From Escherichia phage BUCT632, in sequence record PQ488502.1: a stretch of 64,000 nucleotides of DNA; one strand, given 5' to 3'. This document shows positions 21,921 through 64,000 of this stretch, one piece after another. The notes beneath the pieces were generated by a model. The model ran no database searches, was not told the origin of the DNA, and saw only the letters and a program-made list of their open reading frames with translations. Positions within the stretch are counted from its first letter, which is position 1, and each line of letters opens with the position of its first letter. Position numbers and translations under genes: made by a program.

Positions 21921-21945
21921 TACCCGCATGTAACATCTGAAGTAA

Positions 21946-21979: not shown

Positions 21980-21998
21980 GTATTTAAGATAAAAGAAA

Positions 21999-22661: not shown

Positions 22662-22682
22662 AATGGGCTCCTCCCCTTAATA

Positions 22683-23908: not shown

Positions 23909-23938
23909 ATATCTATAAATTTGAGAGAGGAACCAAAT

Positions 23939-24457: not shown

Positions 24458-24463
24458 TATAAT
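24435..24463 (+). promoter_or_regulatory. early promoter overlapping CDS 3' end
   Basis: TTGCTA-17-TATAAT reading into tRNA-Ser. Confidence 0.5.
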
Positions 24464-24478
24464 ATATCTTATAAATTC

Positions 24479-24564
24479 GGAAGAATAGCATAACGGTATT
24501 GCAGCAGATTGCTAATCTGTCGGTTTGAAATATAGCCTTGTGGGTTCGATTCCCACTTCTTCCG
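24479..24564 (+). tRNA. tRNA-Ser(GCT)
   Basis: acceptor GGAAGAA/TTCTTCC, anticodon loop TTGCTAA, long variable arm, T-loop TTCGATT, CCA encoded. Confidence 0.75.
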
Positions 24565-24573
24565 CCAGATTTT

Positions 24574-24648
24574 GGTTCTCAAGCTCATATGGTATGAGCA
24601 CCCGGCTCATAACCGGAAGGTACGTAGGTTCGAATCCTCGGGGAGCCA
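24574..24648 (+). tRNA. tRNA-Met(CAT), initiator-like
   Basis: anticodon loop CTCATAA; three G:C pairs next to loop; weak T stem; CCA encoded. Confidence 0.65.
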
Positions 24649-24669
24649 CCAATTAAATAGAGGTCACAA

Positions 24670-24858
24670 ATGGATCTATATATAGTTTATGTTGTGTTTA
24701 TTCAAGATAGAGAATACCCGGGTGAATATAAAAAAGGATATAGGTTAGCCAGAGCTACCTCTGAAGCCCAAGCTATGGATAAAGTGGCGGATTATATGAT
24801 TACAGTAGAAAACGTACACTATATCGACTACCTTGAAGCCTCAAAAGTAATTGACTAA
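24670..24858 (+). CDS. hypothetical protein
   Basis: 62 aa ORF between tRNAs. Confidence 0.4.
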   Translation: MDLYIVYVVFIQDREYPGEYKKGYRLARATSEAQAMDKVADYMITVENVHYIDYLEASKVID

Positions 24859-24865
24859 ACTACAC

Positions 24866-24939
24866 GGGGGTGTAATCGAATTGGCATAGGTACTGGACTT
24901 AAAATTCAGGTTTTGTGGGTTCGAATCCCACCACCCCTA
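24866..24939 (+). tRNA. tRNA with anticodon TAA (Leu-decoding, short variable arm)
   Basis: acceptor GGGGGTG/CACCCCT, anticodon stem CTGGA/TTCAG, loop CTTAAAA, T-loop TTCGAAT, CCA encoded. Confidence 0.55.
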
Positions 24940-24956
24940 CCAAATTAAGGAAATAA

Positions 24957-25124
24957 GATGTATAGACATCCACCTCCGCCAACACGTCGTTCTAGGGAAG
25001 TCGTCCTTATGGAATTGACTAAAAACTTCAAGGCAACTCTTGAAGATAGAGATCTGGGCACGGATGAAGACATTGATTTTATTTGTAGACTATTAAAGAT
25101 GAAACTGGAGAAACAACATGGCTA
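24957..25124 (+). CDS. hypothetical small protein
   Basis: 55 aa ORF with AAGGAAA RBS. Confidence 0.3.
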
Positions 25125-25324
25125 ATCCTGAAATTACCGCACAACGTTTCATGCTTAAAGGCATGATTGCTGAGGCAGGTATAACTCAAGAGGTTGCAGA
25201 TTTTCATAAGCAATTTCTTGACATTATAACTCTAGCTAAAGAGACTGGAGAAAAAGAACATGGAGCGGCAATTATGGCTATATCTCTTATTAGTCTAGAC
25301 TTGGCTGAAGAATCTGGAGTTTAG
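25118..25324 (+). CDS. hypothetical protein
   Basis: 68 aa ORF. Confidence 0.45.
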   Translation: MANPEITAQRFMLKGMIAEAGITQEVADFHKQFLDIITLAKETGEKEHGAAIMAISLISLDLAEESGV

Positions 25325-25354
25325 CTCCTCCAAACAGAATTTTTAAAAATGTAC

Positions 25355-25384
25355 TTGCCTTTTGCTTTAAATTTCTGATATAAT
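25355..25384 (+). promoter_or_regulatory. T5-type early promoter cassette
   Basis: TTGCCT-18-TATAAT then ATAAATTGATGAAGGAG leader. Confidence 0.6.
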
Positions 25385-25414
25385 AGTTATATAAATTGAT
25401 GAAGGAGTTAACGA

Positions 25415-25690
25415 ATGCAAAATCGTGTTATAGCTGCTGGTATTGAAAGTGCAATCTGTAAATCCTGGGAAGGCTGGGAAGGTGAGATTGAATGGCTTTA
25501 TTTCTACGATGTAGAACTTCTGCCGGAAATTAAAGCTAAATGTATTGAAGCTGGCATGGCTCCAGATGCAAAAGCTGATATTGATATTTCAATGTCTGAA
25601 CTTAAAGGTCGTGTAATCACTGTTAGTGATGAGGGCGAAGAAGTTTTTGAACTTCCATTCTCCTTAACTGTCACTCCTAAGTTCGACTAA
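25415..25690 (+). CDS. hypothetical protein
   Basis: 91 aa acidic ORF. Confidence 0.5.
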   Translation: MQNRVIAAGIESAICKSWEGWEGEIEWLYFYDVELLPEIKAKCIEAGMAPDAKADIDISMSELKGRVITVSDEGEEVFELPFSLTVTPKFD

Positions 25691-25726
25691 CTAATACAGC
25701 ATTGGGCAAGTTCTTTAAAATTTGAC

Positions 25727-25755
25727 TTGCTCAGTGCCTTAAAACTTGATATAAT
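25727..25755 (+). promoter_or_regulatory. early promoter upstream of tRNA-Tyr
   Basis: TTGACT/TTGCTC -35, TATAAT -10; ~110 nt leader with hairpin precedes tRNA. Confidence 0.5.
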
Positions 25756-25879
25756 AGTTATCTAATTTGGAAACATATCTGAATGAGAAGTAATTAGGCG
25801 AGTTGCTTTTAGGGGTAAAGTCAGGAAATCCTGAAATATTCCACCTTGAGTTTAACCGACTTACTTTTCATTCAAATAT

Positions 25880-25957
25880 GGGGGATTGGCTCAGCGGCGA
25901 CGGCGCCTGGCTGTAGACCGGGTATATCACGCGGAGGTTCGAGTCCTCCATCCCCCA
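25880..25957 (+). tRNA. tRNA-Tyr(GTA)
   Basis: acceptor GGGGGAT/ATCCCCC, anticodon loop CTGTAGA, 10-nt variable region, T-loop TTCGAGT, CCA encoded. Confidence 0.7.
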
Positions 25958-25978
25958 CCAAATTACTAAGGAAGTAAT

Positions 25979-26524
25979 ATGCACAATAAGTTAATAAATG
26001 AGCTTCAAAAAAGACAGATAATAACAAAAACTAAGGAGTTTGATATAACTCCAGATTTAATAGTTGAATGCTCGAAAGTTTACTTAGAGTTAAGTAATAC
26101 AAAGGCTAAGAAAGTCTCCTTAGGAGATCTTAGATATAATGTTAAACTATTGTGCTTATCCTTAATTAAATTTAAGCAAAAAAATAAACTTCCCATAAAA
26201 GAAGGCTTCATATATTTTATAGCAAATAAGGCCTGGCCCAATTATTTTAAGATTGGTATGTCAGCTAACCCAAAGAAACGCTTAGCAAACTATCAAACAT
26301 ATAGCCCTTTTAGGGACTATACAATGCTACACTGGTCTTTCTGGTTTGATAGAAAGGAAGGCAAAAAGTTTGTCCATAGCCTCTATCAAGATAGGGATCA
26401 TGAATGGGTTAAGTTGCCTCGAAGAAAACTAAATAAAATATTTGAACAAATTAATAAACTTTCTGGCTTGGAACATTTAGTACAGAAAGTTAATAAAGAA
26501 ATAGTTAATGCACCTATCGTCTAA
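25979..26524 (+). CDS. T5orf172/GIY-YIG-like domain protein
   Basis: GFIYFIANKAW...YFKIGMSANPKKRLANYQT resembles GIY-YIG/T5orf172 motif. Confidence 0.55.
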   Translation: MHNKLINELQKRQIITKTKEFDITPDLIVECSKVYLELSNTKAKKVSLGDLRYNVKLLCLSLIKFKQKNKLPIKEGFIYFIANKAWPNYFKIGMSANPKKRLANYQTYSPFRDYTMLHWSFWFDRKEGKKFVHSLYQDRDHEWVKLPRRKLNKIFEQINKLSGLEHLVQKVNKEIVNAPIV

Positions 26525-26581
26525 TGGTTAGGACATCAGGATTTCAATCTGAGAATCGGAGTTCAATTCTCCGTGGGTGTA
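26510..26581 (+). tRNA. tRNA-Glu(TTC)
   Basis: acceptor GCACCTA/TGGGTGT, D arm GTCT/GGAC, anticodon loop ATTTCAA, T-loop TTCAATT, CCA encoded; 5' end overlaps CDS stop region. Confidence 0.7.
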
Positions 26582-26593
26582 CCAATTTCTGCA

Positions 26594-26666
26594 TTCCTAG
26601 AGTGTTACTGGACAGCATGTCGGTCTCCAAAACCGTACGGTCTAGGTTCGAGTCCTAGTAGGTTTG
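26594..26666 (+). tRNA. tRNA-Trp(CCA), acceptor pairing uncertain
   Basis: anticodon arm TCGGT-CTCCAAA-ACCGT, T arm CTAGG-TTCGAGT-CCTAG, CCA encoded; 5' acceptor strand not cleanly complementary. Confidence 0.5.
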
Positions 26667-26675
26667 CCAAAATTT

Positions 26676-26747
26676 GCACCTTTAGCTGAGATGGATTAGC
26701 GCTTGCCTGAAGAGCTTGAGAGGTTCGTTCGATACGAACAGGGTGCA
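26676..26747 (+). tRNA. tRNA-Phe(GAA)
   Basis: acceptor GCACCTT/AGGGTGC, D arm GCTG/TAGC, anticodon loop CTGAAGA, T-loop TTCGATA, CCA encoded. Confidence 0.65.
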
Positions 26748-26767
26748 CCAAATTGAAGGAGCTGCTG

Positions 26768-27040
26768 ATGCATCCTGAAAACTTCTTTATTTACTGCGCG
26801 GATAAGTCGCTGAAACGTAGAATTAACAAAGTCTATCATTATCGTGCTAGTCAACAGCCTTATGTATACGCTTTTGACGGTGATCACATTCCACTAGAAC
26901 AATTATCTTGTGATTACATGATATTGAAGAACTTTGACGAGACGAAGATCTCAAGCGTTCATAATCGACAGAATCCATTAACGTGGAAATATAAGAAGAA
27001 AAAGAAAGGCATCAAATTCTTAAAAAATGTAGTTGCTTAG
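26768..27040 (+). CDS. hypothetical protein
   Basis: ORF starting MHPENFF 7 nt after AAGGAG. Confidence 0.45.
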   Translation: MHPENFFIYCADKSLKRRINKVYHYRASQQPYVYAFDGDHIPLEQLSCDYMILKNFDETKISSVHNRQNPLTWKYKKKKKGIKFLKNVVA

Positions 27041-27061
27041 TTTCCAAAAGTTCTGTATAAT
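27033..27061 (+). promoter_or_regulatory. T5-type early promoter cassette driving tRNAs
   Basis: TTGCTT-17-TATAAT; cassette RBS followed by a 10-codon vestigial ORF running into tRNA-Cys. Confidence 0.6.
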
Positions 27062-27109
27062 AATTACATAAATTGAACTGGAGAAGCAACATGACAGAAC
27101 AAGATAAAT

Positions 27110-27182
27110 CGACCGTTGGCTGAATGGCTTAGGCGAAGGATTGCAAATCCTTTTTATGTGAGTTCAAATCTCATGCGGTCGT
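27110..27182 (+). tRNA. tRNA-Cys(GCA)
   Basis: acceptor CGACCGT/GCGGTCG, anticodon arm AAGGA-TTGCAAA-TCCTT, T-loop TTCAAAT, CCA encoded. Confidence 0.75.
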
Positions 27183-27337
27183 CCAATTTGCTGAAAGAAT
27201 TGTTAAATCAATTCAGGCACGCGTAGGAACACTGTCTCCGTAATTGAAAGATGGGGCACGGTTTGGAGAGGTATGCCGCTACACGCTACGGTGCTAACTC
27301 CGTCTAGGTGAAAATCCTAGTCAGCAATGTAAATTTA

Positions 27338-27417
27338 GGGTCGTTAGCCAAGCGGTTTGGCGGCGGATTGTTAATCCGTGTCGAAAGACAACGTAGGTTC
27401 GAATCCTACACGGCCCG
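27338..27417 (+). tRNA. tRNA-Asn(GTT) with extended variable arm
   Basis: acceptor GGGTCGT/ACGGCCC, D arm GCCA/TGGC, anticodon loop TTGTTAA, 13-nt variable hairpin, T-loop TTCGAAT, CCA encoded. Confidence 0.7.
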
Positions 27418-27522
27418 CCAAATTCTGTGTAGAGTTAAGTAAACCGGTAGCCAATCAGCTATCATTGCTGACATCGAATTCAGCCACAGATACCATTTTC
27501 ATTAATAACTGAGGAAACAAGC

Positions 27523-27708
27523 ATGTCCAAGAATGTAATTGCACAGTTAGAAGTTCATCGTGATAGCACTATCAACAATATTGAAGTTGAGAAGAAATAC
27601 ATCGAAGAACTTAAACATGATATACTAGTAAGTCTTAATCGTCTTAATGTACGAAAAGAGTTTCTTAAAGAACTTAATGCAGCTATTGAAAAACTCAAAG
27701 CTGAGTAA
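27523..27708 (+). CDS. hypothetical protein
   Basis: 61 aa charged ORF. Confidence 0.4.
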   Translation: MSKNVIAQLEVHRDSTINNIEVEKKYIEELKHDILVSLNRLNVRKEFLKELNAAIEKLKAE

Positions 27709-27717
27709 ATGAATTAT

Positions 27718-27791
27718 GCGACCGGGGCTGGCTTGGTAATGGTACTCCCCTGTCACGGGAGGGAATGTGGGTTCAAATCCCATCGGTCGCG
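27718..27791 (+). tRNA. tRNA-Asp(GTC)
   Basis: acceptor GCGACCG/CGGTCGC, anticodon arm CTCCC-CTGTCAC-GGGAG, T-loop TTCAAAT, CCA encoded. Confidence 0.8.
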
Positions 27792-27820
27792 CCAAACTAA
27801 ACTAGCACGAGAAAAATGCT

Positions 27821-28168
27821 ATGATTAATGCTAAAGAAGAATTGTTACTTGCCCTAAAGAATACTAATTCTGAAGTTAAGTGTATTAAGATAGAATTCGG
27901 TTATTATGGGGACAAAGAAGTTTGGGTATTACCCGTAGGTTATACAGAAAAAGATATTGAAGATTTTCTAAATAATCTAGACTTTAAATATGATTCTGGT
28001 TTCGGTGGACAATTGCTTTATGGTAACGTATGGTTTACTGATGGAACTTGGTTAGAACGTGGTGAATATGATGGTTCTGAATGGTGGGAGTATAAGACTA
28101 CACCAGCAATCCCTGAGGAATGCCGAACAATTAATGGTGAGGTAGATAATACTTTACGGTTAAACTAA
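27821..28168 (+). CDS. hypothetical protein
   Basis: 115 aa ORF. Confidence 0.5.
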   Translation: MINAKEELLLALKNTNSEVKCIKIEFGYYGDKEVWVLPVGYTEKDIEDFLNNLDFKYDSGFGGQLLYGNVWFTDGTWLERGEYDGSEWWEYKTTPAIPEECRTINGEVDNTLRLN

Positions 28169-28290
28169 TAAAATTTCAGTGCAGAACACGGAGCTAGCAA
28201 TTCGGAAGTGCTGACTCATGATAAGCTGCCTATGTACTTGCGAAGCGGTCGTGTCCAAGACTCGGACTCTTGCACTGAAAACAATCAAAC

Positions 28291-28411
28291 ATTCTAGCGT
28301 GGTTGATGGGGAAACCAGCTTGGCGAGGGCAGAAGCTCGTTCGATTCGAGTGAAAGAATGGTTCTCGTAAGTCCGCACAAGTGATAACAGGTTCGAGTCC
28401 TGTCTAGAATG
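28291..28411 (+). ncRNA. oversized tRNA-like RNA (~121 nt) with two T-arm-like hairpins
   Basis: complementary acceptor strands ATTCTAG/CTAGAAT, D arm TGGT-TGATGGGGAA-ACCA, hairpins CTCG-TTCGATT-CGAG and ACAGG-TTCGAGT-CCTGT; too long for a canonical tRNA. Confidence 0.35.
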
Positions 28412-28559
28412 ACACTATAAAGTTTACTTATTATGTAGGTTCCGGTAGATCGGCGGGTCTATTCTGGCATTTAAGAGGGGTCTCGCAAACTTCTTTGTCA
28501 GCCGTGGGGTTGGTAGCCTCCAGGCGGCCTACACAATAAGTAAATTTATTAAAAATTCA

Positions 28560-28588
28560 TTTGCTATTCTGCTTAATTCTCTGTATAA
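28560..28588 (+). promoter_or_regulatory. T5-type early promoter cassette
   Basis: AAAAATTCATTTGCTA..17..TATAAT. Confidence 0.6.
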
Positions 28589-28621
28589 TATATTTTATAA
28601 AGTGAAGAGAAGGAAAGCAAA

Positions 28622-28780
28622 ATGAAACACAAGATAGCTCAAGTTTTTATGGCATTATGGTGTATGCCAATAGCTGTAACAGCTTTTAATCTAGATACTT
28701 TTACTATAGAAGAAAAATGTATCGGATTAGTTAGCGGCTTTAGTATGCTTGGCTTATCTTTGTTGTGGTTGAAGAAATAA
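28622..28780 (+). CDS. hypothetical small membrane protein
   Basis: 52 aa hydrophobic ORF after GAAGGAAAG RBS. Confidence 0.35.
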   Translation: MKHKIAQVFMALWCMPIAVTAFNLDTFTIEEKCIGLVSGFSMLGLSLLWLKK

Positions 28781-28784
28781 TATT

Positions 28785-28859
28785 CTCCGTGTAGCTCAGT
28801 TTGGCCAGAGCGTTTCGTTTGGGGCGATAGGGTCGGGGGTTCAAATCCTCCCACGGAGA
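28785..28859 (+). tRNA. tRNA-Pro(TGG)
   Basis: acceptor CTCCGTG/CACGGAG, D arm GCTC/GAGC, anticodon loop TTTGGGG, T-loop TTCAAAT, CCA encoded. Confidence 0.65.
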
Positions 28860-28868
28860 CCAAACAAT

Positions 28869-28943
28869 TGCGGGTTAGATCTCTGGTAGAGATCGCTAGT
28901 CTCATAAGCTAGAAAGAGGTAGGTTCGATTCCTGCACCCGCTT
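28869..28943 (+). tRNA. tRNA(CAT) Met or Ile2
   Basis: D arm GATC/GATC, anticodon arm CTAGT-CTCATAA-GCTAG, T-loop TTCGATT, CCA encoded; position 1-72 mismatch. Confidence 0.65.
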
Positions 28944-28965
28944 CCATTTTAATAGGGGATTTCGA

Positions 28966-29133
28966 AATGAAAGTATTTCGATTAGTAGTAAGTGACAAAC
29001 GTTTAGGTAAGAATACCTCAAAATCATTACTTGCTCATTATGGTAAAAATTGGGATGAAGTAATGGTAGAGTTTAATACTAATCACCCTTACTTGAAAGT
29101 TCACTCTATTAAAGAAGTATACAATGGTTACTA
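28966..29133 (+). CDS. hypothetical small protein
   Basis: 55 aa ORF between tRNAs. Confidence 0.35.
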
Positions 29134-29134
29134 A

Positions 29135-29210
29135 TAGATCGCTAGCTCAATAGGTTTAGTAGCATCCGACTTTTAATCGGAAGGTTCTGGGTTCGAGTCC
29201 CAGGCGATCT
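29135..29210 (+). tRNA. tRNA-Lys(TTT)
   Basis: acceptor AGATCGC/GCGATCT, anticodon arm TCCGA-CTTTTAA-TCGGA, T-loop TTCGAGT, CCA encoded. Confidence 0.75.
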
Positions 29211-29232
29211 ACCAATTTCAAGAAAAACGCAG

Positions 29233-29261
29233 TTGCTTGATGCTTAATTTCTTGTTATAAT
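29233..29261 (+). promoter_or_regulatory. T5-type early promoter cassette without ORF
   Basis: TTGCTT-17-TATAAT; cassette RBS GAGGAG lies in hairpin GATGAGGA-GAAA-TCCTCATC and no ATG follows. Confidence 0.55.
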
Positions 29262-29284
29262 ATTTATATAAATTGATGAGGAGA

Positions 29285-29499
29285 AATCCTCATCATAGTT
29301 CACTAAGGTATTAGCTCGACCTAGGACTGGCTGCCAAAAAGCACGATCCCCATGATTCGGGAGAAGTTCTAGATTGGTCCACTAGATTCAGCGGCAACTG
29401 AATAGTGTATTGGGTTTGCGAGATGACGCAGTTCCTTCCGCTCGAAGCGAAGGTGCTGTAGTTACGCCGAGCTAATAGCCTTAGTAAACTAAAGAATTT
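29285..29499 (+). ncRNA. putative structured leader/noncoding RNA upstream of tRNA-Ala
   Basis: ~215 nt promoter-proximal, no plus-strand ORF, several hairpins (e.g. TTCAGCGGCAACTGAA, CCTTCCGCTCGAAGCGAAGG). Confidence 0.3.
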
Positions 29500-29575
29500 G
29501 GGGAATGGGTCTGCATGGAGTGGACACCTCGCTTGCACCGAGGACATCAGAACGGTTCGATTCCGTTATTCTCCA
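29500..29575 (+). tRNA. tRNA-Ala(TGC)
   Basis: acceptor GGGGAAT/ATTCTCC, D arm GTCT/GGAC, anticodon arm CCTCG-CTTGCAC-CGAGG, T-loop TTCGATT, CCA encoded. Confidence 0.75.
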
Positions 29576-29583
29576 CCAAATAC

Positions 29584-29657
29584 GCGTGATTGATGGAATT
29601 GGCATACATACCGTCCTTAGAAGTCGGGTTTTGAGGGTTCGAATCCCTTGTCACGCA
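29584..29657 (+). tRNA. tRNA-Leu(TAG), short variable arm
   Basis: acceptor GCGTGAT/GTCACGC, anticodon loop CTTAGAA, T-loop TTCGAAT, CCA encoded. Confidence 0.6.
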
Positions 29658-29691
29658 CCAAATTTGATGGTCAGAGTAAATTAAACCTACT

Positions 29692-29736
29692 ATCTCGGTT
29701 GAGCTGTTTTAATGGGTTCGAATCCCAGCGAGGCGT
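29692..29736 (+). ncRNA. tRNA minihelix-like element (acceptor + T arm only)
   Basis: T arm TGGG-TTCGAAT-CCCA flanked by partly complementary TCTCGGT / AGCGAGG; no D or anticodon arm. Confidence 0.2.
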
Positions 29737-29772
29737 AACTGCCTGGTGTGATAGAGGCATCATCTTATTATT

Positions 29773-29860
29773 GGAAGAGCAAATCGAATTGGCGACGAAA
29801 ACCGCTTGGAAAGTGGCTGACTGGTAAAACGGCTTGAGAGTTCAAATCTCTCCTCTTCCG
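29773..29860 (+). tRNA. tRNA-Ser(GGA)
   Basis: acceptor GGAAGAG/CTCTTCC, anticodon loop TTGGAAA, 18-nt variable arm, T-loop TTCAAAT, CCA encoded. Confidence 0.7.
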
Positions 29861-29882
29861 CCAAACACTTGAGGTAATAATA

Positions 29883-30230
29883 ATGCTAGCAAAAGATAAA
29901 GCTCTAGAGTTTTTAGCATCTTTAGATGAAGATAAGATTATAGATGCTGCTGAAAAAGCTGGAATGCCAGATTTAACATATCTGGAACGTGCTATTATTG
30001 CTCGTGATAAACTACAGAAAGAGTTTGCTATTGCTCAGGAGGAGTTTTATACTCGCTATAACGCTCTTACTAAGCAAATTGAAAATGAGTGTTCTCATAC
30101 TTGGGGAGTAACAGAAAACCTAGGTAATGATCACGATGGCTGGTCTAAAGTAAAAATTACCTACTACCATCGTAGGACTTGTAAAATTTGTGGAAAAGTA
30201 GAAAACTTCACTAGTACGAGTGACTATTAG
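29883..30230 (+). CDS. hypothetical protein
   Basis: 115 aa ORF with C-terminal CxxC. Confidence 0.5.
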   Translation: MLAKDKALEFLASLDEDKIIDAAEKAGMPDLTYLERAIIARDKLQKEFAIAQEEFYTRYNALTKQIENECSHTWGVTENLGNDHDGWSKVKITYYHRRTCKICGKVENFTSTSDY

Positions 30231-30243
30231 TATAATAAATACT

Positions 30244-30330
30244 AGAAGATAGGACGTAGTGGTATGTAACTGGTCTTGAAAACCAGCCCGCTGTAGTGAT
30301 ACGGTGATGGTTCGACTCCATTATCTTCTG
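30244..30330 (+). tRNA. tRNA-Ser(TGA)
   Basis: acceptor AGAAGAT/ATCTTCT, anticodon arm CTGGT-CTTGAAA-ACCAG, 19-nt variable arm, T-loop TTCGACT, CCA encoded. Confidence 0.75.
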
Positions 30331-30353
30331 CCAATTAACTATAAGGAAATCTT

Positions 30354-30527
30354 ATGAGCAAAACAGTTACTGTAACAATGAAGGATGGTAAAAAATTTAA
30401 AGCATGTCTTCATGAAACAGATAAGGGATGGATGGCTTATTTGCCACACCTAGATTCCACCGGGTACGGAATGACCCAACGTGAAGCTATTGTTGATGCT
30501 TTAAATGAGGCTTCTGCTGGTTTATAA
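30354..30527 (+). CDS. hypothetical small protein
   Basis: 57 aa ORF after AAGGAAA RBS. Confidence 0.4.
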   Translation: MSKTVTVTMKDGKKFKACLHETDKGWMAYLPHLDSTGYGMTQREAIVDALNEASAGL

Positions 30528-30541
30528 AAATTCTTGAAGTA

Positions 30542-30666
30542 TGCCGGAATTGGTAGACGGGGCTGCCTAAAAGGTTTATAGAGAACATCCACTCTCTACA
30601 ACATACCTCATAAAGCGGCTGAGATAAATGGTCTATCTCGTGAAGGTTCAAGTCCTTCTGCTTCTT
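30542..30666 (+). ncRNA. tRNA-like RNA with Leu-type D arm and distal T arm
   Basis: D-arm signature CCGGAATTGGTAGACGG and T arm GAAGG-TTCAAGT-CCTTC ~100 nt apart; internal hairpins; no complementary acceptor found. Confidence 0.25.
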
Positions 30667-30782
30667 GATACATCTATGGCTCAAAGTGTAACGGTGCTAT
30701 TTGATGCTCTTAGTAAGACTTCCCCGACATGCGTTCGGGAGTAAGCTGCTAAGGCTAGAGTAGAAGAGTTTCTGAGAGCCGC

Positions 30783-30895
30783 CACAATTGAAAATTCGTA
30801 CTCGTCTTGAGCTGCGTGCAATAGGAGATAACTTGATTAGTATTCTAGAACATGCTAATTGAGGAAGGTTTCGCTAACCCTGCGAGTTTTCAATT
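30783..30895 (+). repeat. 13-bp inverted repeat pair abutting the tRNA-His 5' end
   Basis: CCACAATTGAAAA (30783-30795) is the exact reverse complement of TTTTCAATTGTGG (30883-30895). Confidence 0.6.
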
Positions 30896-30969
30896 GTGGC
30901 TATATTATAATTGGTTAATGATCCTGATTGTGAATCAGGCCTATGTGGATTCGAATTCCACTAGCCACC
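30896..30969 (+). tRNA. tRNA-His(GTG)
   Basis: acceptor GTGGCTA/TAGCCAC, discriminator C, anticodon arm CCTGA-TTGTGAA-TCAGG, T-loop TTCGAAT, CCA encoded. Confidence 0.8.
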
Positions 30970-30997
30970 CCAAATTAACTTAAATAGGAAATAAAAT

Positions 30998-31198
30998 ATG
31001 GCTGATTTCTGCAAACAATGCTCTATTGATATGTGGGGTAAAGATACTGGTGATCTTTCTGGTTTGATTACAGAAGCTGAAGTTAAAGAAGGTTACGGTG
31101 CTGTTGTGCTTTGCGAGGGATGCGGAGTTATTCGTGTAGATCATGAAGGCAAACGTCTAGAAGAACCAGAACCAATAGCCACGGTTCCTGTAGAGTAA
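30998..31198 (+). CDS. zinc-ribbon small protein
   Basis: 66 aa with CKQC...CEGC pairs. Confidence 0.5.
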   Translation: MADFCKQCSIDMWGKDTGDLSGLITEAEVKEGYGAVVLCEGCGVIRVDHEGKRLEEPEPIATVPVE

Positions 31199-31206
31199 AG
31201 AATTAT

Positions 31207-31279
31207 TGGAGTGTAGATCAATTGGCAGATCGTCGGCCTCTGACTCCGAAGGTTCCTGGTTCGATCCCAGGCACTCCAG
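31207..31279 (+). tRNA. tRNA-Gln(CTG)
   Basis: acceptor TGGAGTG/CACTCCA, D arm GATC/GATC, anticodon loop CTCTGAC, T-loop TTCGATC, CCA encoded. Confidence 0.7.
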
Positions 31280-31288
31280 CCAAACAAT

Positions 31289-31361
31289 TGGAGAGTAGTG
31301 TAACGGTTAGCACAACGGCCTTTGACCCCGTTAATGGTAGGTTCGATTCCTCCTTCTCCAG
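31289..31361 (+). tRNA. tRNA-Gln(TTG)
   Basis: acceptor TGGAGAG/TTCTCCA, anticodon loop CTTTGAC, T-loop TTCGATT, CCA encoded. Confidence 0.65.
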
Positions 31362-31372
31362 CCAAATAATAA

Positions 31373-31452
31373 GCGGTTAAGCACACGGGTTGTGTCGCAG
31401 GCCTTCCAAGCCTCGCTGAGTAGGGTTCGATTCCCTCTAGCCGCTCCAACTT
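31373..31452 (+). tRNA. tRNA-Gly(TCC)
   Basis: acceptor GCGGTTA/TAGCCGC, anticodon arm AGGC-CTTCCAA-GCCT, T-loop TTCGATT, CCA encoded. Confidence 0.6.
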
Positions 31453-31464
31453 TAAGGAAACATT

Positions 31465-31716
31465 ATGCACGTTTTTGAGTTTCGTAATAAAAGTACCGAT
31501 AAACGAGTTATTGTTATTGGAGAAACATACCGAGCATACGAACAAACTGACGGCTCTGTTATCCTGAATGATGAGAAAGGAGGTTTTAGCTTTTATCCAG
31601 AAGAACCTTATGAAGAGTTTCGAAAACAATTTAACCTAGACTGGAGAAAGCATTTAAACACTGTTGCTTCATCCGTAGTATTGCCAACTACCAGTACTGT
31701 ACTCTCTAATGGCTGA
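31465..31716 (+). CDS. hypothetical protein
   Basis: 83 aa ORF. Confidence 0.5.
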   Translation: MHVFEFRNKSTDKRVIVIGETYRAYEQTDGSVILNDEKGGFSFYPEEPYEEFRKQFNLDWRKHLNTVASSVVLPTTSTVLSNG

Positions 31717-31873
31717 TAACCTAAAAGTCAAGATCGATAAACAAAAGAAACGTGTAGAAGTAGAGATTGGTGAAGAACGTGTAGCCTTCACCTTTGAATT
31801 TCTACAACAAATGGCAATGACAGTTATGACTGACAAGTCTCTTGTTATTGAAAAAGAAATCCCGTTGAAATAA
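31709..31873 (+). CDS. hypothetical small protein
   Basis: 54 aa ORF overlapping upstream stop. Confidence 0.3.
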   Translation: MADNLKVKIDKQKKRVEVEIGEERVAFTFEFLQQMAMTVMTDKSLVIEKEIPLK

Positions 31874-31882
31874 CGGGTTTTT
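31857..31882 (+). terminator. rho-independent terminator
   Basis: CCCGTT-GAAATA-ACGGG hairpin plus TTTTT. Confidence 0.55.
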
Positions 31883-31954
31883 GCTCCTAAAGCATTGTTG
31901 GCGATGCAGTTGCCTTGTAAGCATCTGAACCGGGTTCGATTCCTGGTGGGAGCA
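31883..31954 (+). tRNA. tRNA-Thr(TGT)
   Basis: acceptor GCTCCTA/TGGGAGC, D arm GCAT/ATGC, anticodon loop CTTGTAA, T-loop TTCGATT, CCA encoded. Confidence 0.75.
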
Positions 31955-31972
31955 CCAAATTTAAAAATTCAT

Positions 31973-32001
31973 TTGCTTTCTCTCTTATTTCTTGTTATAA
32001 T
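31973..32001 (+). promoter_or_regulatory. T5-type early promoter cassette
   Basis: AAAAATTCATTTGCTT..17..TATAAT. Confidence 0.6.
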
Positions 32002-32031
32002 ACTTGTATAAATTAACGAGAGGGAAACCAA

Positions 32032-32325
32032 ATGAAACGTTATCTTTCTGTTATGTTCCAAACTGGTGGTCAACGCTATACCTATGAATTTCCTAGCTCT
32101 TGGAAAATCAAAGAAGGTGATCAAGTAGTTGTACTAACACCGCGTGATGGGTACAAGGTAGTAACGGTTAAGCAAGTCTTTCCAAAAGATTATACGCCAT
32201 CTAAGTCTATTAATTATAAGATGATTCATGGTGTAGTTCGTCAAGTACCCCGAGTGGACATCGAGGTCAAAGTAGATAAAGATGGTAAACTTAAATATAC
32301 CTCTTGCTTAGACGAGTTGCTATAA
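32032..32325 (+). CDS. hypothetical protein
   Basis: 97 aa ORF after cassette RBS. Confidence 0.5.
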   Translation: MKRYLSVMFQTGGQRYTYEFPSSWKIKEGDQVVVLTPRDGYKVVTVKQVFPKDYTPSKSINYKMIHGVVRQVPRVDIEVKVDKDGKLKYTSCLDELL

Positions 32326-32531
32326 TGAGAATTACTTTCACAGAAAAGATTATGGGTGATGGTGTTATGATCATTACCGCATGGGATGGTAATCAGTGGT
32401 GTAGTGTTTCAGGTATTAAGCCTGAAGAACAAACACTAGAAAATATCTCAAAGATTAAGCGAAGAATGGCAGAACGTGCACGACTTCCAGGTGCGCCTAG
32501 AAATGGTAAACGTTCTGCAATTAAATGTTAA
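32325..32531 (+). CDS. hypothetical protein
   Basis: ORF starting MRITFTEK, start overlapping upstream stop. Confidence 0.45.
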   Translation: MRITFTEKIMGDGVMIITAWDGNQWCSVSGIKPEEQTLENISKIKRRMAERARLPGAPRNGKRSAIKC

Positions 32532-32532
32532 T

Positions 32533-32606
32533 GCTTCGGTAGCTTAGCGATCTAAAGCACTCGGCTGATAACCGAGAGATCGGGGGTTTAAATCCCTCCC
32601 GGAGTA
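32533..32606 (+). tRNA. tRNA-Ile(GAT)
   Basis: acceptor GCTTCGG/CCGGAGT, D arm GCTT/AAGC, anticodon arm CTCGG-CTGATAA-CCGAG, unusual T-loop TTTAAAT, CCA encoded. Confidence 0.7.
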
Positions 32607-32705
32607 CCAAATTTAGGAATTAAGACTATGCGTCCAGGAAAGTTTAAAAAAGCTAATTGGTCTAAAGAGTATAAAGAATACTTACTTAGTCTAATAAAAC
32701 ATAAT

Positions 32706-32778
32706 AGTTAGTTGGCAGAGTGGTTATGCACCTCCTTCATACGGAGCGACTACAGTGGTTCAAATCCACTACTAACTA
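32706..32778 (+). tRNA. tRNA(CAT) Met or Ile2
   Basis: acceptor AGTTAGT/ACTAACT, anticodon loop TTCATAC, T-loop TTCAAAT, CCA encoded. Confidence 0.65.
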
Positions 32779-32818
32779 CCATTAAAATAGCTAGAGATAG
32801 CTAAATTTAGGAGCAGCT

Positions 32819-57674: not shown

Positions 57675-59345
57675 ATGATTATTTCCGCAGAAAAACAAAC
57701 CGTTATCCTGAAAATGGCCGCTGACTTTAATTTCTATGGTAAACGTCTGCGCGCTACTAAACTGGAGGTCTGCGACGATATATCAAAAGCAGTCTACGAT
57801 ACAACGAAACATTCTACCGCCATTTGTGATTGGCTGGAAGCAAACAAACCAGCTAAACCGAAAGCGGCAAAAGTAGCAAAAGCCATTAAAAACGACGAGC
57901 GCCCCGAAGCGGCTGGGATTGTTTCTAGTACGGTTGAGCAATGGGAAGTAAAACAGGGTAAACGTTTTATTATTACGTCGATTCAGAATAATACTTTCCC
58001 GCATAAAAACTTTTTAGCAAGTCTGGAAAAATTCGCTGAATATATCGGTGCCGATTTGCTTGTTTCTAAGTATATTTATAATAAAAACGGCTTCCAAAAT
58101 GGAGAAGGTGCAGACGGAATCAAATATGATTCTGCGTTTGATAAATATATTTGCAGCAAAAACGTGTTTTTAAATAACCGCCGTTTTGCTTTCATGGCTG
58201 AAATTAATGTTTTGCCTACCGCAGATTATCCGCTTTCTGGATTCGCAGAAACTGCAACGGCTTTAAATATTGAAGGTCTGGCAATTGGTCACGCTAAAAT
58301 TACCGCTGAAAGCGTACCAGCTTTAAAAGGTGAAGTAGTGCGCCGTATGTACTCAACCGGAACGGCAACCCTCAAAAACTACATTCAGCAGAAAGCAGGA
58401 CAAAAGGCCGAGGCGCTGCATAACTTCGGTGCGCTGATTGTTGAGTTCGACGAGGACGGGGAATTTTTTGTTCGCCAGCTTGAAACGATGGACGAAAGCG
58501 GGGTATTTTATGATCTGAATGTGTGCGCTACTCCTGCCGGATGCTATGAGACATCGGGGCATGTTTTAGGCTTGCAGTATGGTGATATTCATGCAGAAAA
58601 ACTAGATGAGGCTTGCGCTCAAGCGTCTTGGGGTCATGGTGATACTTATGGGCTTGTGGATATTCTCAAACCGAAATATCAGTTTGTACATGATGTGCAT
58701 GATTTTACATCCCGCAATCATCATAACCGCGCTTCTGGTGTATTCCTAGCGAAACAGTACGCCGCCGGACGTGATAAGGTTATTGATGATCTTATCGATA
58801 CGGGGCGCGTGCTGGAATCAATGGAGCGTGATTTTTCTCAAACAATCATTGTTGAATCAAATCACGATTTGGCGTTATCCCGTTGGCTGGATGATCGAAA
58901 TGCTAACATCAAAGACGATCCAGCAAACGCCGAACTATATCACAGCCTAAACGCTGCAATCTATGCGGCTATTGCAAAGCAGGACGATACTTTCAACGTG
59001 CTAGATTATGCCTTGCGTAAGGTAGCAGGTTGTGAATTTAACGCCATTTTCCTGACCACTGACCAATCATTTAAAATTGCAGGCATTGAATGCGGCGTAC
59101 ACGGTCACAACGGCATTAACGGCAGCCGTGGCAACCCGAAACAATTTAAGAAATTGGGCAAGTTAAACACGGGGCATACGCATACCGCCAGCATTTACGG
59201 TGGCGTTTATACCGCTGGCGTTGCTGGTAGTCTGGATATGGGTTACAACGTTGGCGCGTCAAGCTGGACGCAAACGCATTTAATTACATACGCCAACGGC
59301 CAGCGCACTTTGATTGACTTTAAAAACGGCAAGTTTTTCGCATAA
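57675..59345 (+). CDS. A1: A1-like pre-early protein with metallophosphatase-like motifs
   Basis: 556 aa, same length as T5 A1 (from memory); motifs GDIHAE, GHGD, GHNG, GHTH. Confidence 0.55.
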   Translation: MIISAEKQTVILKMAADFNFYGKRLRATKLEVCDDISKAVYDTTKHSTAICDWLEANKPAKPKAAKVAKAIKNDERPEAAGIVSSTVEQWEVKQGKRFIITSIQNNTFPHKNFLASLEKFAEYIGADLLVSKYIYNKNGFQNGEGADGIKYDSAFDKYICSKNVFLNNRRFAFMAEINVLPTADYPLSGFAETATALNIEGLAIGHAKITAESVPALKGEVVRRMYSTGTATLKNYIQQKAGQKAEALHNFGALIVEFDEDGEFFVRQLETMDESGVFYDLNVCATPAGCYETSGHVLGLQYGDIHAEKLDEACAQASWGHGDTYGLVDILKPKYQFVHDVHDFTSRNHHNRASGVFLAKQYAAGRDKVIDDLIDTGRVLESMERDFSQTIIVESNHDLALSRWLDDRNANIKDDPANAELYHSLNAAIYAAIAKQDDTFNVLDYALRKVAGCEFNAIFLTTDQSFKIAGIECGVHGHNGINGSRGNPKQFKKLGKLNTGHTHTASIYGGVYTAGVAGSLDMGYNVGASSWTQTHLITYANGQRTLIDFKNGKFFA

Positions 59346-59385: not shown

Positions 59386-59410
59386 ATTAAATTAATTGGA
59401 GTTTATAACT

Positions 59411-59803
59411 ATGAAAAAGCAAAATATCCCATTCGATCGCGCTCAATCCTCAATCGTTCTGGTTTATTCTAATGGTGAACGTTACCACGTCGAGGCGGGG
59501 CACGTTGTTGATGATTTAATCGAGTTTAACGAGGCGTTACAGATCACGACTTTCGCCTATACGCAAGGCCGCGCAAGTAGTCACATCAAGGCCGCTGGCG
59601 TTTATGTTGACACGGTGAAACAAGAAACGATTATCATCGACGCCGTAAAATCCGGCCTAGCCTTTGCAGTTGTCGCGCCTTGCCCCGCTTGCCTAGATGA
59701 TCAGCTAACGAGTGCAAAGGTATATACCTGCGCGGGTATTCGTTCCAGTGTATCAGGTGAGGATGTTAGTTTTATCGCTGATGCGTTGGCTTATGGTCTT
59801 TAA
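59411..59803 (+). CDS. A2: A2-like pre-early protein
   Basis: ~130 aa ORF downstream of A1-like gene; assignment by size and synteny only. Confidence 0.4.
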   Translation: MKKQNIPFDRAQSSIVLVYSNGERYHVEAGHVVDDLIEFNEALQITTFAYTQGRASSHIKAAGVYVDTVKQETIIIDAVKSGLAFAVVAPCPACLDDQLTSAKVYTCAGIRSSVSGEDVSFIADALAYGL

Positions 59804-59882: not shown

Positions 59883-60617
59883 ATGAATAAAGCTATTATG
59901 AATATTTCCCGCAGCTTCCCGCATATTTCCCGCGTCATGATTTGGGATTTAGACGGCACTATCATTAATTCTTTCCATCGTGTAGCGCCTTGCTTTGATA
60001 GTGAGGGCAATTTAGATTTAAATAAGTATAAAAATGAAGCGTGTAAACATCATTTAATAATGCAGGATTCTTTATTGCCATTGGTTGAATACATGCGCCA
60101 ATGTATGAATGACGCAAATACTTTAAATATTATTTGTACCGCTCGACTAATGAGCAAGTCGGACTATTATTATTTGCGTAAACAAGGTCTGCGCGGTCGT
60201 GGTAATAGTAATATCCGCGTGTTTTCCCGCGATACACTGCATAAATATTTTAAAGCTGATAAGGTTAGCGAGATATACCACAGCAAAGACGCAGTTTATA
60301 AATCTTATTATTTTGAATTATTTAAACAGCTATATCCGAACGCTGATTTTACGATGATTGATGATCATAAAGGCGTATTATCAGCGGCGGCATCATACGG
60401 ATTTAAAACGCTGGACGCGCAAGCCGTTAACGATATTCTATCAATCGGGGTGGCATTGATAGGTGAAACCTTTATCGATGAATCGCTCGATGATGATAAT
60501 GATTATCAGTTCCTAGCCGATCGTTTGAAATTATGTTGGGAAGGTATGACCGAGGAAGAACGCGCAGAATATAGTTGCAGCCCGCAACAATACATGGAGA
60601 AATTAAAAGTTGCATAA
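59883..60617 (+). CDS. dmp: 5'-deoxyribonucleotidase-like HAD-family protein
   Basis: 244 aa; HAD motif I WDLDGTI; size and position next to A1/A2 candidates. Confidence 0.55.
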   Translation: MNKAIMNISRSFPHISRVMIWDLDGTIINSFHRVAPCFDSEGNLDLNKYKNEACKHHLIMQDSLLPLVEYMRQCMNDANTLNIICTARLMSKSDYYYLRKQGLRGRGNSNIRVFSRDTLHKYFKADKVSEIYHSKDAVYKSYYFELFKQLYPNADFTMIDDHKGVLSAAASYGFKTLDAQAVNDILSIGVALIGETFIDESLDDDNDYQFLADRLKLCWEGMTEEERAEYSCSPQQYMEKLKVA

Positions 60618-60768: not shown

Positions 60769-61014
60769 TTAGCGCATAGAAGGGTCATCAAACCTGTGTT
60801 CTGGTCTGAACTCACGGAATCTCTTCCGCGACGCCCGAGATCCATCCGACCACTCCCGATCAAACTCCGCACGTTTCTCGTCAAACTTCCGCTCCCTTTC
60901 CGCAATCTCCCGCGCCACTTCCGCAATATATTTACGATGCTTGTTGATTGCCGCAGTCGTCCCGAAAACTCCCGCGAGTACCCCTATAATAAAAGCAATT
61001 ACAATACTAAACAT
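60769..61014 (-). CDS. hypothetical membrane-anchored protein
   Basis: N-terminal TM helix then Arg/Glu-rich region. Confidence 0.45.
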   Translation of the reverse strand: MFSIVIAFIIGVLAGVFGTTAAINKHRKYIAEVAREIAERERKFDEKRAEFDREWSDGSRASRKRFREFRPEHRFDDPSMR

Positions 61015-61423
61015 TATTTATATTCCCGTAGCTTACGTTCAATACGAGCTAAGTGGTTATCCAAGACACATTGCCCTAGAATTACCACAACTAATAAAAC
61101 AATAATTATTACCTCCATTAAAGCCACCCCGCCATAGCTGCTAACCAAAAGCCTACGAAGATTAGGAATAATACAAAACCAAATCCGTAAATATTAATCC
61201 ACGCTTCATACACTTCTCCGCGTCTGCTCTTTCTTTTGTTTGGCATATCTTTCACTCTCCAATAAATATGGTATTTTAAAGTATTTTATAGTTTGTACAT
61301 AACCAACCATGCTCGTGACTTCCTAGAAGGACTTCTACTTTTCTCACATAGTGGTTTCTGCTAGTACACCATCCAAGAAATAAAAAATTTAGTTTACTTG
61401 GATGTCTTTTTGCTTTATACTAA

Positions 61424-61690
61424 TTACAGGTAGTTAGATTGCTCTAGTTTAAATTTACAATCACCATATTTAAGGTCAAACTGACTGAGATCCCACCACC
61501 CAAACTTAGTACGGAGCTGTACTACTGGGAATCGATCTCCCTTAATACGAACTTTTTGAACCTTGAGGCCGTAATGTTCTTCTCCCGCACCACCAAAAGA
61601 TTTTACAAATCCAGTACAAAATGGTTTGGGAGCAGGTGCACAACCAGATAACATAACTGCGGCAACTAGTGCAATCACAAACTTTTTCAT
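61424..61690 (-). CDS. llp: Llp-like lipoprotein (receptor-blocking lipoprotein candidate)
   Basis: signal peptide + lipobox MLSGC; small size; divergent from receptor-binding protein gene. Confidence 0.55.
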   Translation of the reverse strand: MKKFVIALVAAVMLSGCAPAPKPFCTGFVKSFGGAGEEHYGLKVQKVRIKGDRFPVVQLRTKFGWWDLSQFDLKYGDCKFKLEQSNYL

Positions 61691-61775
61691 ATTTATCTCT
61701 CCATTTCTAATTTATGAGTATATTATAGCAAAATAGAGAGATGAAAGCAAATACATTTTTATAATAGGAGATTAT

Positions 61776-63533
61776 ATGGGTTTTTTCGCTGGAAAATATA
61801 GCGATGGTAAGACCGTACTATCTTTAAATACTGAATCTGGTGGTGACATTAATCGTCACTATAGTCCAAATGCCAATAGTATTTTTCATAGTGATATGCC
61901 ATTTGTCCTAGTTGATGGTACTTATGAGTCTGGGTTAGGTGATGCCGGTAATGGGTTTTTTGTATGTCAGATGCCCTCTGACATAATAAATATTAAATCC
62001 AATGACCCCGGTAGAGTTATATTAACTGCTATTGAGATTAATGGTACTCACAGAGCTTTTCTTAATGGTACTCAGAGTAAGGTGGGTCAAACTATAGTTG
62101 CCACTCAAGCAGATCCTTTTAGATCTTTTGCTAGTGTTTCCCAGACTAGTGGATTTGCATTTGGTAATAGCCTGGCATCTGGTACATATAACTATAATCC
62201 ATCTATAGGACATGAAGAATCTATTTCTAGGAATGGTACAGGGGGTACTACCTTACATAGTACGTATCATGGTATAGTTAGGCCAGGTGCAGGAGCTCCA
62301 GTAGGTATTACTGTTGCAGAAGCTTTTGCACAGTTAGGATTCCCTACTAATAGTAGTACAGTACCTATAGATAGTAATAACCAATATTACTGGGACCCAG
62401 GATGGATGTCTCCTTTAGGATCAGCACACAGAGGGCACGATTGGTTTTATGTTTGTAACTCTAACATACGTGGGTATGGTGGGGTAAGACAAGGTCTTCC
62501 TGGTAATGTAAATACTATGTATCATGATGGGGGTAATAGATTTGTTTGTAGAGGTTCTACAACTAATTTAGCTAATCAATCTGGTAACGCTACAATATTA
62601 CAGGATTGGTATAACATAACCCCTACTAAAGTTATTTGGTACGTTTTGAATTTAAGATACTCAAATGGTAATATGGGTATTTCTGGTAATCCTTTTACTG
62701 GCTCAGATATTCTTATCTCTCCCTCTAATTTTACTATAAAAGGGGTTAGTTTACCGAATACTGGGTATAAGTTTATCAACCAAAATGCTTTTGGTAACTT
62801 AGGTTATAGACCAGATATGGAATATATTGGAAATAACGCAGCGTACACCGGGGCCTTTGGGGATACCACTGCAAGATGTGAACTTGTAGGTTCTAGTAAC
62901 GGGAGTTTATGGTCTCCTGTAGACTATGGAGGGGCTAAGTCTCAAATTAGTATTTACAAATTCGGAGCTGGTAAGCAATGGTATGTAAATTCTAATGATA
63001 ATACTATCGGTAATGAACACGGGGTTGTTTGGGGGCCTTCAGCAGTTCCACTACGACTTTTTAGCGGAAATGTTGGTAGTTCTTACATGGGGGATGATAT
63101 TACTCCCAGCTATCCAGGAACTGGAGATAGATACGTTGGTTTATCAACTATTGGGCTAGGTATACCGGGTGGCAATGCTACTGTAATTCTTACCACTGAA
63201 GTTATATCAGGTAATCTTAACTGTGCAGGTGTTCCTGCTAATACATGGAATAACGGTGTGTTTCAAGTGCAGGGAAGAAGAGCATATAGTTATAGTAATG
63301 GAGACGCGATATTCCACCAGATTTTAACACTACCAGTAGGGTATTTAGTACCTTTTCATACTACATCTGCTTTTAGATACACACCTAACAATGCCCTAAG
63401 TAGAAATAGTTTTATATACACTGCTAAAAATCTGGGGAACGGAAATGTAGAGTTAGGGGTAGTTATGCACGTAAGTTTAGGTAGTGCAGTTTTTCTACCT
63501 AGATTAAGAGTAACAGTTCAACGCCTTACCTAA
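61776..63533 (+). CDS. putative receptor-binding tail protein (pb5-like)
   Basis: 585 aa Gly/Asn/Ser/Thr-rich protein divergent from Llp-like gene; assignment by context. Confidence 0.45.
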
Positions 63534-63543: not shown

Positions 63544-64000
63544 ATGGCAAATGATGTATTAGTACCAGATCTTATGTCCCCTGAAGGGATGGATGTGATT
63601 GAAGCTTATTTACAGTGCGGTAGCGATGTGCCTTCTGCCGCACGTAGTCTTGGAATGTCCGAAATTGCTTTCCGAGATATTATGAATCGTAGTGAAGTTA
63701 AGAATTACTTAAACGATATTTTTATGGAAAGTGGTTTCCGTAACAGGGATCGTTTATTTGGTGTTCTGGATGAAGTTATTAAGCGTAAGCTGGAGGAACT
63801 GGAAGAAACTGGCATGGGTTCTGACCAAGATATTATGGATATTCTCTGGAAAGCACATAAAATGAAAATGGAAGAAATGAAAATGATGGTAGAATTGGAG
63901 AAAGTGAAGGCAGCAGCCCGTACTCCAGCTAACCAGACCAATATCCAGAATAATATTATTGCTGGAGCTGGGGATCAAAACTACATGGACTTAATTACTT
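63544..64000 (+). CDS. putative DNA-binding late protein, possibly terminase small subunit (3' end beyond window)
   Basis: open frame from ATG 63544 to window edge after GGAGGA RBS; N-terminal HTH-like segment. Confidence 0.35.

Follow-up and report, generated by a model that had tools for sequence, protein, structure and literature searches.

A BtuB-type receptor-binding protein gene paired with a divergent llp lipoprotein gene in the T5-like Escherichia phage BUCT632

In this study, we analyzed a divergent gene pair in a window of 64,000 nucleotides (nt), the whole stretch of Escherichia phage BUCT632 DNA under analysis (PQ488502.1). The source of the locus is a T5-like phage (Demerecviridae, Markadamsvirinae; Tequintavirus-like). 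The pair consists of llp, encoding a lipoprotein (Llp) of 88 amino acids (aa), and rbp, encoding a receptor-binding protein (RBP) of 585 aa. Both open reading frames (ORFs) were found in the ORF listing at exactly the coordinates given in Table 1, and they diverge from an 85-bp spacer. A preliminary description, made from the sequence letters, had noted a small lipoprotein gene diverging from the gene of a 585-aa tail protein rich in Gly, Asn, Ser and Thr. The ORFs, the spacer and a Pfam match of the lipoprotein to LPAM_1 support the first point, and the composition of the RBP supports the second (13.3% Gly, 9.4% Asn, 9.4% Ser and 7.5% Thr; 39.7% combined). The same description had recognized the T5-type pairing of an RBP with a receptor-blocking lipoprotein. 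This was upheld by matches of the RBP to PHROG 4815 and to pb5, the RBP of T5, by the match of Llp to PHROG 1119 and its identity to the Llp of BF23, and by the position of the locus upstream of terS, the gene for the terminase small subunit. Homology, gene order, conserved promoter and Shine-Dalgarno (SD) elements and the variation of rbp as a cassette were shown here; dependence on the vitamin B12 transporter BtuB, and exclusion by identical or near-identical proteins, are taken from the literature.

The RBP matched PHROG 4815, 'receptor binding tail protein', over residues 1-585 (6.4e-274). A sequence search of the PDB matched it to the solved T5 pb5 chains 8b14_B/8a8c_B (E 1.7e-48) over residues 1-157 and 270-531. 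These two matches indicate that the RBP is a pb5 homologue. Its identity was 99% to the RBP of SSP1, 98.3% (575/585) to that of T5_ev212 and 97% to that of Cit2. Identity was 74% to DT57C and SPC35, 71% to SelmaRatti, 70% to TrudiRoth, 69% to BF23 Hrs and 57% to Yersinia phage phiR2-01, but only 34% to T5 pb5. The RBP thus clustered by sequence with the RBPs of BtuB-dependent phages (57-74% identity versus 34% to T5 pb5). As for the FepA type, the RBP of Cit2, which is of the subtype found here, is 27.7% identical to the RBPs of H8 and S124 (PMC12980165). NC_005859 confirms the 640 aa that the preliminary description gave for T5 pb5 (T5.157, oad, 1923 nt), and the suggestion made there that the shorter protein hints at a different receptor specificity agrees with the sequence relationships. 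The comparison that it had proposed, with pb5 and with BF23- and DT57C-type RBPs, returned a pb5 homologue 69-74% identical to the latter. On the basis of sequence, the 585-aa protein is a BtuB-type homologue of the BF23 Hrs branch and not an FhuA-binding pb5.

Llp begins MKKFVIALVAAVMLSGC and carries a type II signal peptide with a lipobox (MKKFVIALVAAVMLSG/C). Residues 1-18 matched the Pfam lipoprotein lipid attachment site LPAM_1 (E 5.1e-05) above the curated cutoff. The residue at +2, after the lipidated Cys17, is Ala. Under the Lol-sorting rule, the +2 residue decides retention in the inner membrane; with Ala at this position, Llp would have no inner-membrane retention signal. The full-length protein matched the Cor/Llp family PHROG 1119 (1.8e-26). 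It is identical at 88/88 residues to the Llp of BF23 and to those of SelmaRatti, Cit2 and EV212. The sole difference from DT57C Llp, A11T, lies in the signal peptide, so that the mature proteins are identical. It has been reported that cloned DT57C llp lowers the plating of BF23 and the DT57C group more than 100-fold, whereas T5 is unaffected (PMC4728585). For BF23 llp, the same paper mentions a reported reduction of more than 10^6-fold. Since the mature Llp is identical to that of the tested DT57C Llp, experiments elsewhere have already demonstrated what this exact mature protein does.

We also compared the mature proteins without their signal peptides. PHROG 1119 was matched by the mature 72-aa Llp at 2.6e-16 and by mature T5 Llp at 1.4e-11, both at profile positions 17-78. 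Pairwise similarity of the two Llps was marginal, with a BLASTP E of 0.009 for the mature parts and 26% identity in the multiple alignment. T5 and BF23 Llp have been called non-homologous (PMC4728585 and PMC10644984). The homologue search with Llp yielded 11 clusters, all 58-99% identical, leaving a shallow alignment for the AlphaFold2 model; the top structural neighbour of the model built from it was T5 Llp. A PDB sequence search with Llp returned only noise (ovomucoid, cellulase, E 0.2 or worse). Cys25 and Cys78 were invariant across 12 homologues. T5 Llp has a disulfide between Cys11 and Cys58 (PMC9586334). In a MAFFT alignment the C-terminal Cys of Llp fell in the same column as that of T5 Llp, and the N-terminal Cys residues were close but in different columns. 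By analogy, Cys25 and Cys78 may form a disulfide in Llp.

The RBP matched proteins in 540 phage records (about 95 at 95% or more protein identity), and Llp matched proteins in 401 (about 180 at 95% or more). Given these numbers and the full-length PHROG matches of both proteins, they are not chance ORFs. The layout of llp, rbp and terS is identical in T5, BF23, DT57C, SPC35, SSP1 and EV212, and the locus lies directly upstream of terS in every relative fetched. The 10-nt junction between rbp and terS, with the same annotation, was also found in DT57C, SPC35, BF23, SSP1 and EV212. A previous report stated that the RBP gene is invariably upstream of the terminase genes in Markadamsvirinae (PMC8594841). 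The synteny with terS on one side, and with small membrane ORFs beside the terminal repeat on the other, is that of T5 and BF23; the window shows, as its reverse complement, the arrangement that is canonical for T5/BF23 (terS, rbp, llp, small membrane ORFs, terminal repeat). Over 2.5 kb of the locus, DNA identity was 93.6-97% to the best 30 records listed, which are mostly of Tequintavirus type (SP01, ECOP18, SSP1, IME178, AKFV33 and T5_ev212 among them).

Several relatives have been shown or reported to depend on BtuB. For DT57C this was shown with btuB mutants (PMC4728585), and for TrudiRoth by knockout and complementation in a study whose BtuB cluster takes in all such RBPs (PMC8594841). 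BtuB dependence has also been published for phiR2-01 (PMC8624392) and BF23 (PMC10644984), and PMC3326045 and PMC12980165 cite SPC35 as a BtuB user. Genome-wide screens described in a preprint identified 23 Demerecviridae with a protein about 30% identical to pb5 as BtuB binders, with EV212 named (10.64898/2026.04.02.716166). The 585-aa pb5 of AKFV33 was described in 2012 without a receptor assignment (PMC3326045). The BUCT632 module matches the BF23-type Hrs/Llp family on every feature tested. These results make it very probable that the locus serves host recognition and lytic conversion in a T5-like phage, as the BF23/BtuB version of this module.

Some points weigh against this reading. BtuB dependence and exclusion are known from the proteins of relatives, and the genome here from its sequence alone. 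The RBP is 26-31% different from those of three classically studied BtuB binders, mostly in putative receptor-contact loops. The EV212 of the preprint corresponds to GenBank T5_ev212 by name only. FhuA has been inferred as the receptor of Cit2, whose RBP is 97% identical to the one here (PMC12980165). In the PDB copy searched there was no BtuB-Llp or BtuB-RBP structure, so the periplasmic mechanism considered below is extrapolated from FhuA; a solved structure of a BtuB-type RBP or Llp, or a recent structural paper, was looked for and none was found.

Nine BtuB-type RBPs were aligned. The least conserved blocks were aa 106-120, 166-195, 241-255, 481-495 and 526-540, of which 106-120, 166-195 and 526-540 align with pb5 loops L1, L2 and L4. 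The pb5 loop tips Q115 (L1) and F170 (L2) correspond to RBP residues 114 and 172, and L4 570-590 corresponds to 530-539. At L4, the RBP here and that of DT57C are without the 6-residue insertion found in SPC35 and BF23. We then compared identity along the DNA in 90-nt bins. In the llp gene, the spacer and terS, identity was 92-100% with SPC35, 84-100% with DT57C and 81-100% with BF23. Within rbp, identity to DT57C and BF23 dropped to 41-77%. This stretch is sharply bounded at about 61796 and at 63506, and from 63506 onwards DNA identity is again 97-100%. In SPC35, high identity also extends over the first ~290 nt of rbp (94-100%) and over a segment inside the gene, 62696-62965 (89-93%). By this identity pattern, the interior of rbp appears as a recombination cassette (Table 1). 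Such a recombination pattern, together with the reasoning about the blocker, has already been described for DT57C versus BF23 (Golomidova et al., PMC4728585). The loop blocks listed above are replaced wholesale against BF23 and SPC35 in this AKFV33/SSP1/EV212-type allele, and Llp is invariant. It is conceivable, though improbable, that the allele uses a different BtuB footprint or, unlike other alleles, tolerates certain variants of BtuB in Salmonella, Shigella and Citrobacter. If true, it would belong to a natural series on how one periplasm-acting blocker neutralizes many extracellular binding modes.

The straight tail fibre would carry a single copy of the RBP at its tip. This protein would bind the TonB-dependent transporter BtuB irreversibly, inserting its distal loops into the barrel, and DNA ejection would follow. 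After export and lipidation at Cys17, Llp would be sorted to the outer membrane, into its inner leaflet. In the early phase of infection it would bind BtuB and make it unusable by BF23-type RBPs, and this blocking would prevent superinfection as well as loss of progeny on cell debris. In T5, four loops of pb5 are inserted into the lumen of FhuA. T5 Llp binds FhuA's periplasmic face as well as a non-native conformation of the plug, and EL7 and EL8 fold inward over the pb5 site (PMC9586334). By analogy, Llp is likely to attach to BtuB at the periplasmic face and plug and to refold the extracellular loops allosterically, jamming the plug from the periplasm. Both the location of variable RBP blocks at positions aligned with pb5 loops and the conserved flanks around a variable rbp interior are in line with this.

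Alternatively, the module could be of BtuB type and Llp could block BtuB otherwise than T5 Llp blocks FhuA, by direct occlusion, by interference with BtuB assembly or through the TonB box. We regard this as unlikely. Both mature Llps match the same positions of the Cor/Llp profile, and the lipobox, the residue for outer-membrane sorting and the cysteine pair framing the mature domain are common to the two. The structural neighbour search, within the limit of a model from a shallow alignment, also ranked T5 Llp first. An invariant Llp beside an RBP with swapped surface loops is expected if Llp acts on the conserved periplasmic side and does not compete with the RBP for its footprint. In the T5 study, the mechanism was argued to generalize to other TonB-dependent transporters (PMC9586334).

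Another explanation is that RBPs of the 585-aa subtype recognize a receptor other than BtuB, for example FhuA, as proposed for Cit2, or FepA, and that the BF23-type Llp is a mismatched passenger after recombination between rbp and llp. The edges of recombination lie exactly at the rbp boundaries, which makes rbp and llp separable in principle, and, compared with SPC35 and BF23, other sequence stands in the blocks that align with the pb5 loops inserted into the receptor. The Cit2 study of 2026 stated that the Cit2 RBP is 96.9% identical to that of T5 (NC_005859), inferred FhuA from this, and discussed a 'decoupling' from the BtuB-type Llp (PMC12980165). We could not reproduce the stated identity. 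In the Cit2 record (OP745948, 8561-10670), the RBP of 585 aa is 97% identical to the RBP here and 34% to the 640-aa T5.157, and its Llp is that of BF23. We considered whether NC_005859 carries a 585-aa RBP, which would explain the 96.9%; this was ruled out, as the record has the canonical 640-aa pb5. Moreover, EV212, with an RBP 98.3% identical to that of BUCT632, is reported to be BtuB-dependent, and DT57C, whose RBP is just as divergent, nevertheless uses BtuB and remains subject to blocking by the same Llp. The RBP here is only ~34% identical to the FhuA-type pb5, and for the Cit2 RBP the identity to H8 and S124 is the 27.7% given above (PMC12980165). A non-BtuB receptor for this subtype is therefore very unlikely. 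Judged by the sequences compared, Cit2 is most likely a BtuB-type phage of the ordinary kind, and a mislabelled reference seems to account for the apparent decoupling of its RBP and Llp.

That the 585-aa protein is a non-RBP structural tail protein, beside an unrelated membrane lipoprotein, can practically be dismissed: Pfam has no family for the large protein, but, instead of the non-RBP match that the preliminary description had named as contrary evidence, it matches the PHROG RBP family over its full length and solved pb5, is annotated as RBP in dozens of records, and is encoded directly upstream of terS, the RBP locus in all Markadamsvirinae (PMC8594841).

We also examined expression signals in the spacer, which was aligned for EV212, SSP1, DT57C, SPC35, BF23, TrudiRoth and T5. 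As shown in Table 1, a candidate llp promoter was read by eye and from conservation. Its -35 element is conserved in all aligned relatives, T5 included, and its -10 element and the llp SD in most. The records of both T5 (NC_005859) and BF23 annotate divergent promoters in this spacer. A consensus scan for promoters and terminators gave no hit between llp and rbp, and its total site count for the region was below the shuffle expectation; the scan overlooked the llp promoter because its -35 element matches the consensus at only 3/6 positions. From its sequence, the candidate probably functions as the llp promoter. For rbp, no convincing -35/-10 pair was identified in the spacer. A perfect TATAAT at 61760-61765 was rejected as a promoter, as it abuts the SD and is not conserved in TrudiRoth or T5. 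A separate promoter-like site, a consensus match only, lies just downstream of the llp stop codon and points antisense into llp, towards rbp. It has been reported that Llp is expressed after genome injection (PMC12980165). Because of this and the early and late promoters annotated in the BF23 spacer, llp would be an early gene and rbp a late one.

Among the closest known systems is BF23 Hrs/Llp (OR083247), with BtuB as the family receptor (Mondigler et al. 2006, as cited in PMC4728585 and PMC10644984). It has the identical Llp and the same divergent layout beside terS and the terminal repeat. Its llp-rbp spacer differs by two bases in the aligned stretch, and its terS is 81-99% identical (90-nt bins). 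However, the 69% identical RBP has 595 aa against 585 here, and blocks aa 91-270 and 451-540 are replaced. DT57C/DT571-2 (KM979354; PMC4728585) has the same mature Llp and an RBP of 586 aa, close to the length here, in which the loop aligned with pb5 L4 is likewise of the short form, and for DT57C both BtuB dependence and Llp-mediated exclusion have been shown experimentally. Its 74% identical RBP differs along the whole gene from about codon 7. The same allele as in BUCT632 is present in T5_ev212, SSP1, AKFV33, SP01, ECOP18 and Cit2. Among these, the RBPs of SSP1, EV212, Cit2 and ECOP18 were compared and are 97-99% identical; SP01 and AKFV33 were compared by DNA only (93.7-97% over the 2.5-kb locus). 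The Llps of SSP1, Cit2, EV212, SP01 and ECOP18 are 98-100% identical. Phages with this allele differ by few substitutions, for example 10 between BUCT632 and EV212.

T5 pb5 (oad) and Llp (PDB 8a8c, 8b14, 8a60 and 7qjf; PMC9586334) are more distant. The N- and C-terminal regions of the RBPs are alignable and the C-terminal ...QRLT motif is conserved. Both Llps fall within one Cor/Llp profile family, and T5 shares the divergent layout as well as the llp promoter elements. In contrast, the T5 receptor is FhuA, its RBP of 640 aa is 34% identical, its Llp has 77 aa and is 26% identical, and the DT57C/BF23-type Llp gives no protection against T5. The Cor lipoproteins of T1, phi80 and related siphophages are likewise small outer-membrane lipoproteins of PHROG 1119 that block a TonB-dependent transporter used by the phage. 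Those characterized target FhuA, however, lie in other genomic surroundings, a cor cassette with two membrane proteins, and have no divergent pairing with a pb5-type RBP.

The genes and features of the locus and its surroundings are collected in Table 1. The 25 kb upstream of the locus are 91-95% identical to other T5-like phages. Beyond llp, the interval of the small membrane ORFs contained no homologue of the 195-nt ORF T5.161/BF23_174 and no HNH/homing endonuclease, unlike SSP1 and SelmaRatti, which have one at the same position. The terminal-repeat boundary was placed by homology to the annotated right terminal repeat of BF23, and the window runs ~60 kb further left into early genes. The source record is therefore an assembly that is either permuted or has a single collapsed repeat copy, a situation shared by many T5-like records in GenBank. 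The window also contains a cluster of transfer RNA (tRNA) genes, a feature that is probably typical of T5-like phages.

Table 1. Genes and sequence features of the llp-rbp locus and its surroundings in the BUCT632 window
Feature	Position	Strand	Description
tRNA gene cluster	20864-32781	+	22 genes
A1	57675-59345		556 aa; upstream of the locus
135-aa ORF	59396-59803		at the position of the 131-aa hypothetical BF23_00177 of BF23
dmp	59883-60617		5'-deoxynucleotidase gene; upstream of the locus
Terminal-repeat boundary	near 60727		placed by homology
Small membrane ORFs	60769-61255	-	three, single-pass; homologues of T5.159, T5.160, T5.162 (BF23_172, 173, 175)
Promoter-like site	61393-61421	+	TTTACT, 17 nt, TATACT
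llp	61424-61690	-	receptor-blocking (superinfection exclusion) lipoprotein precursor, 88 aa; signal peptide 1-16, lipobox L14-S-G-C17, mature 72 aa, invariant Cys25 and Cys78
llp-rbp spacer	61691-61775		85 bp
llp SD	61697-61702	-	GGAGAG, 6 nt upstream of ATG; conserved in the spacer alignment
Candidate llp promoter	61722-61750	-	-35 TTGCTT 61750-61745, 17-nt spacer, extended -10 TGcTATAAT, hexamer 61727-61722
rbp SD	61766-61770	+	AGGAG, 5 nt upstream of ATG; conserved in the spacer alignment
rbp (hrs/oad homologue)	61776-63533	+	tail-tip receptor-binding protein, 585 aa; predicted BtuB-type allele, AKFV33/SSP1/EV212 subtype
Putative recombination cassette	61796-63505		by identity pattern
terS, 5' part	63544-64000	+	terminase small subunit; starts 10 nt after the rbp stop codon, runs off the window; conserved right flank of the rbp cassette

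The exact module is already known: it has been sequenced, annotated and functionally characterized in close relatives, and the window holds no new biology. The comparison exposes a probable receptor mis-assignment for Cit2 (PMC12980165). It also indicates that the terminal receptor can be called as BtuB from sequence, which would be useful for phage cocktails that avoid cross-resistance. Near-identical llp and flanks around a block-swapped rbp interior fit an action of Llp on the periplasmic side, a pattern already known from DT57C versus BF23. These results predict exclusion between BUCT632 and other BF23-type phages.
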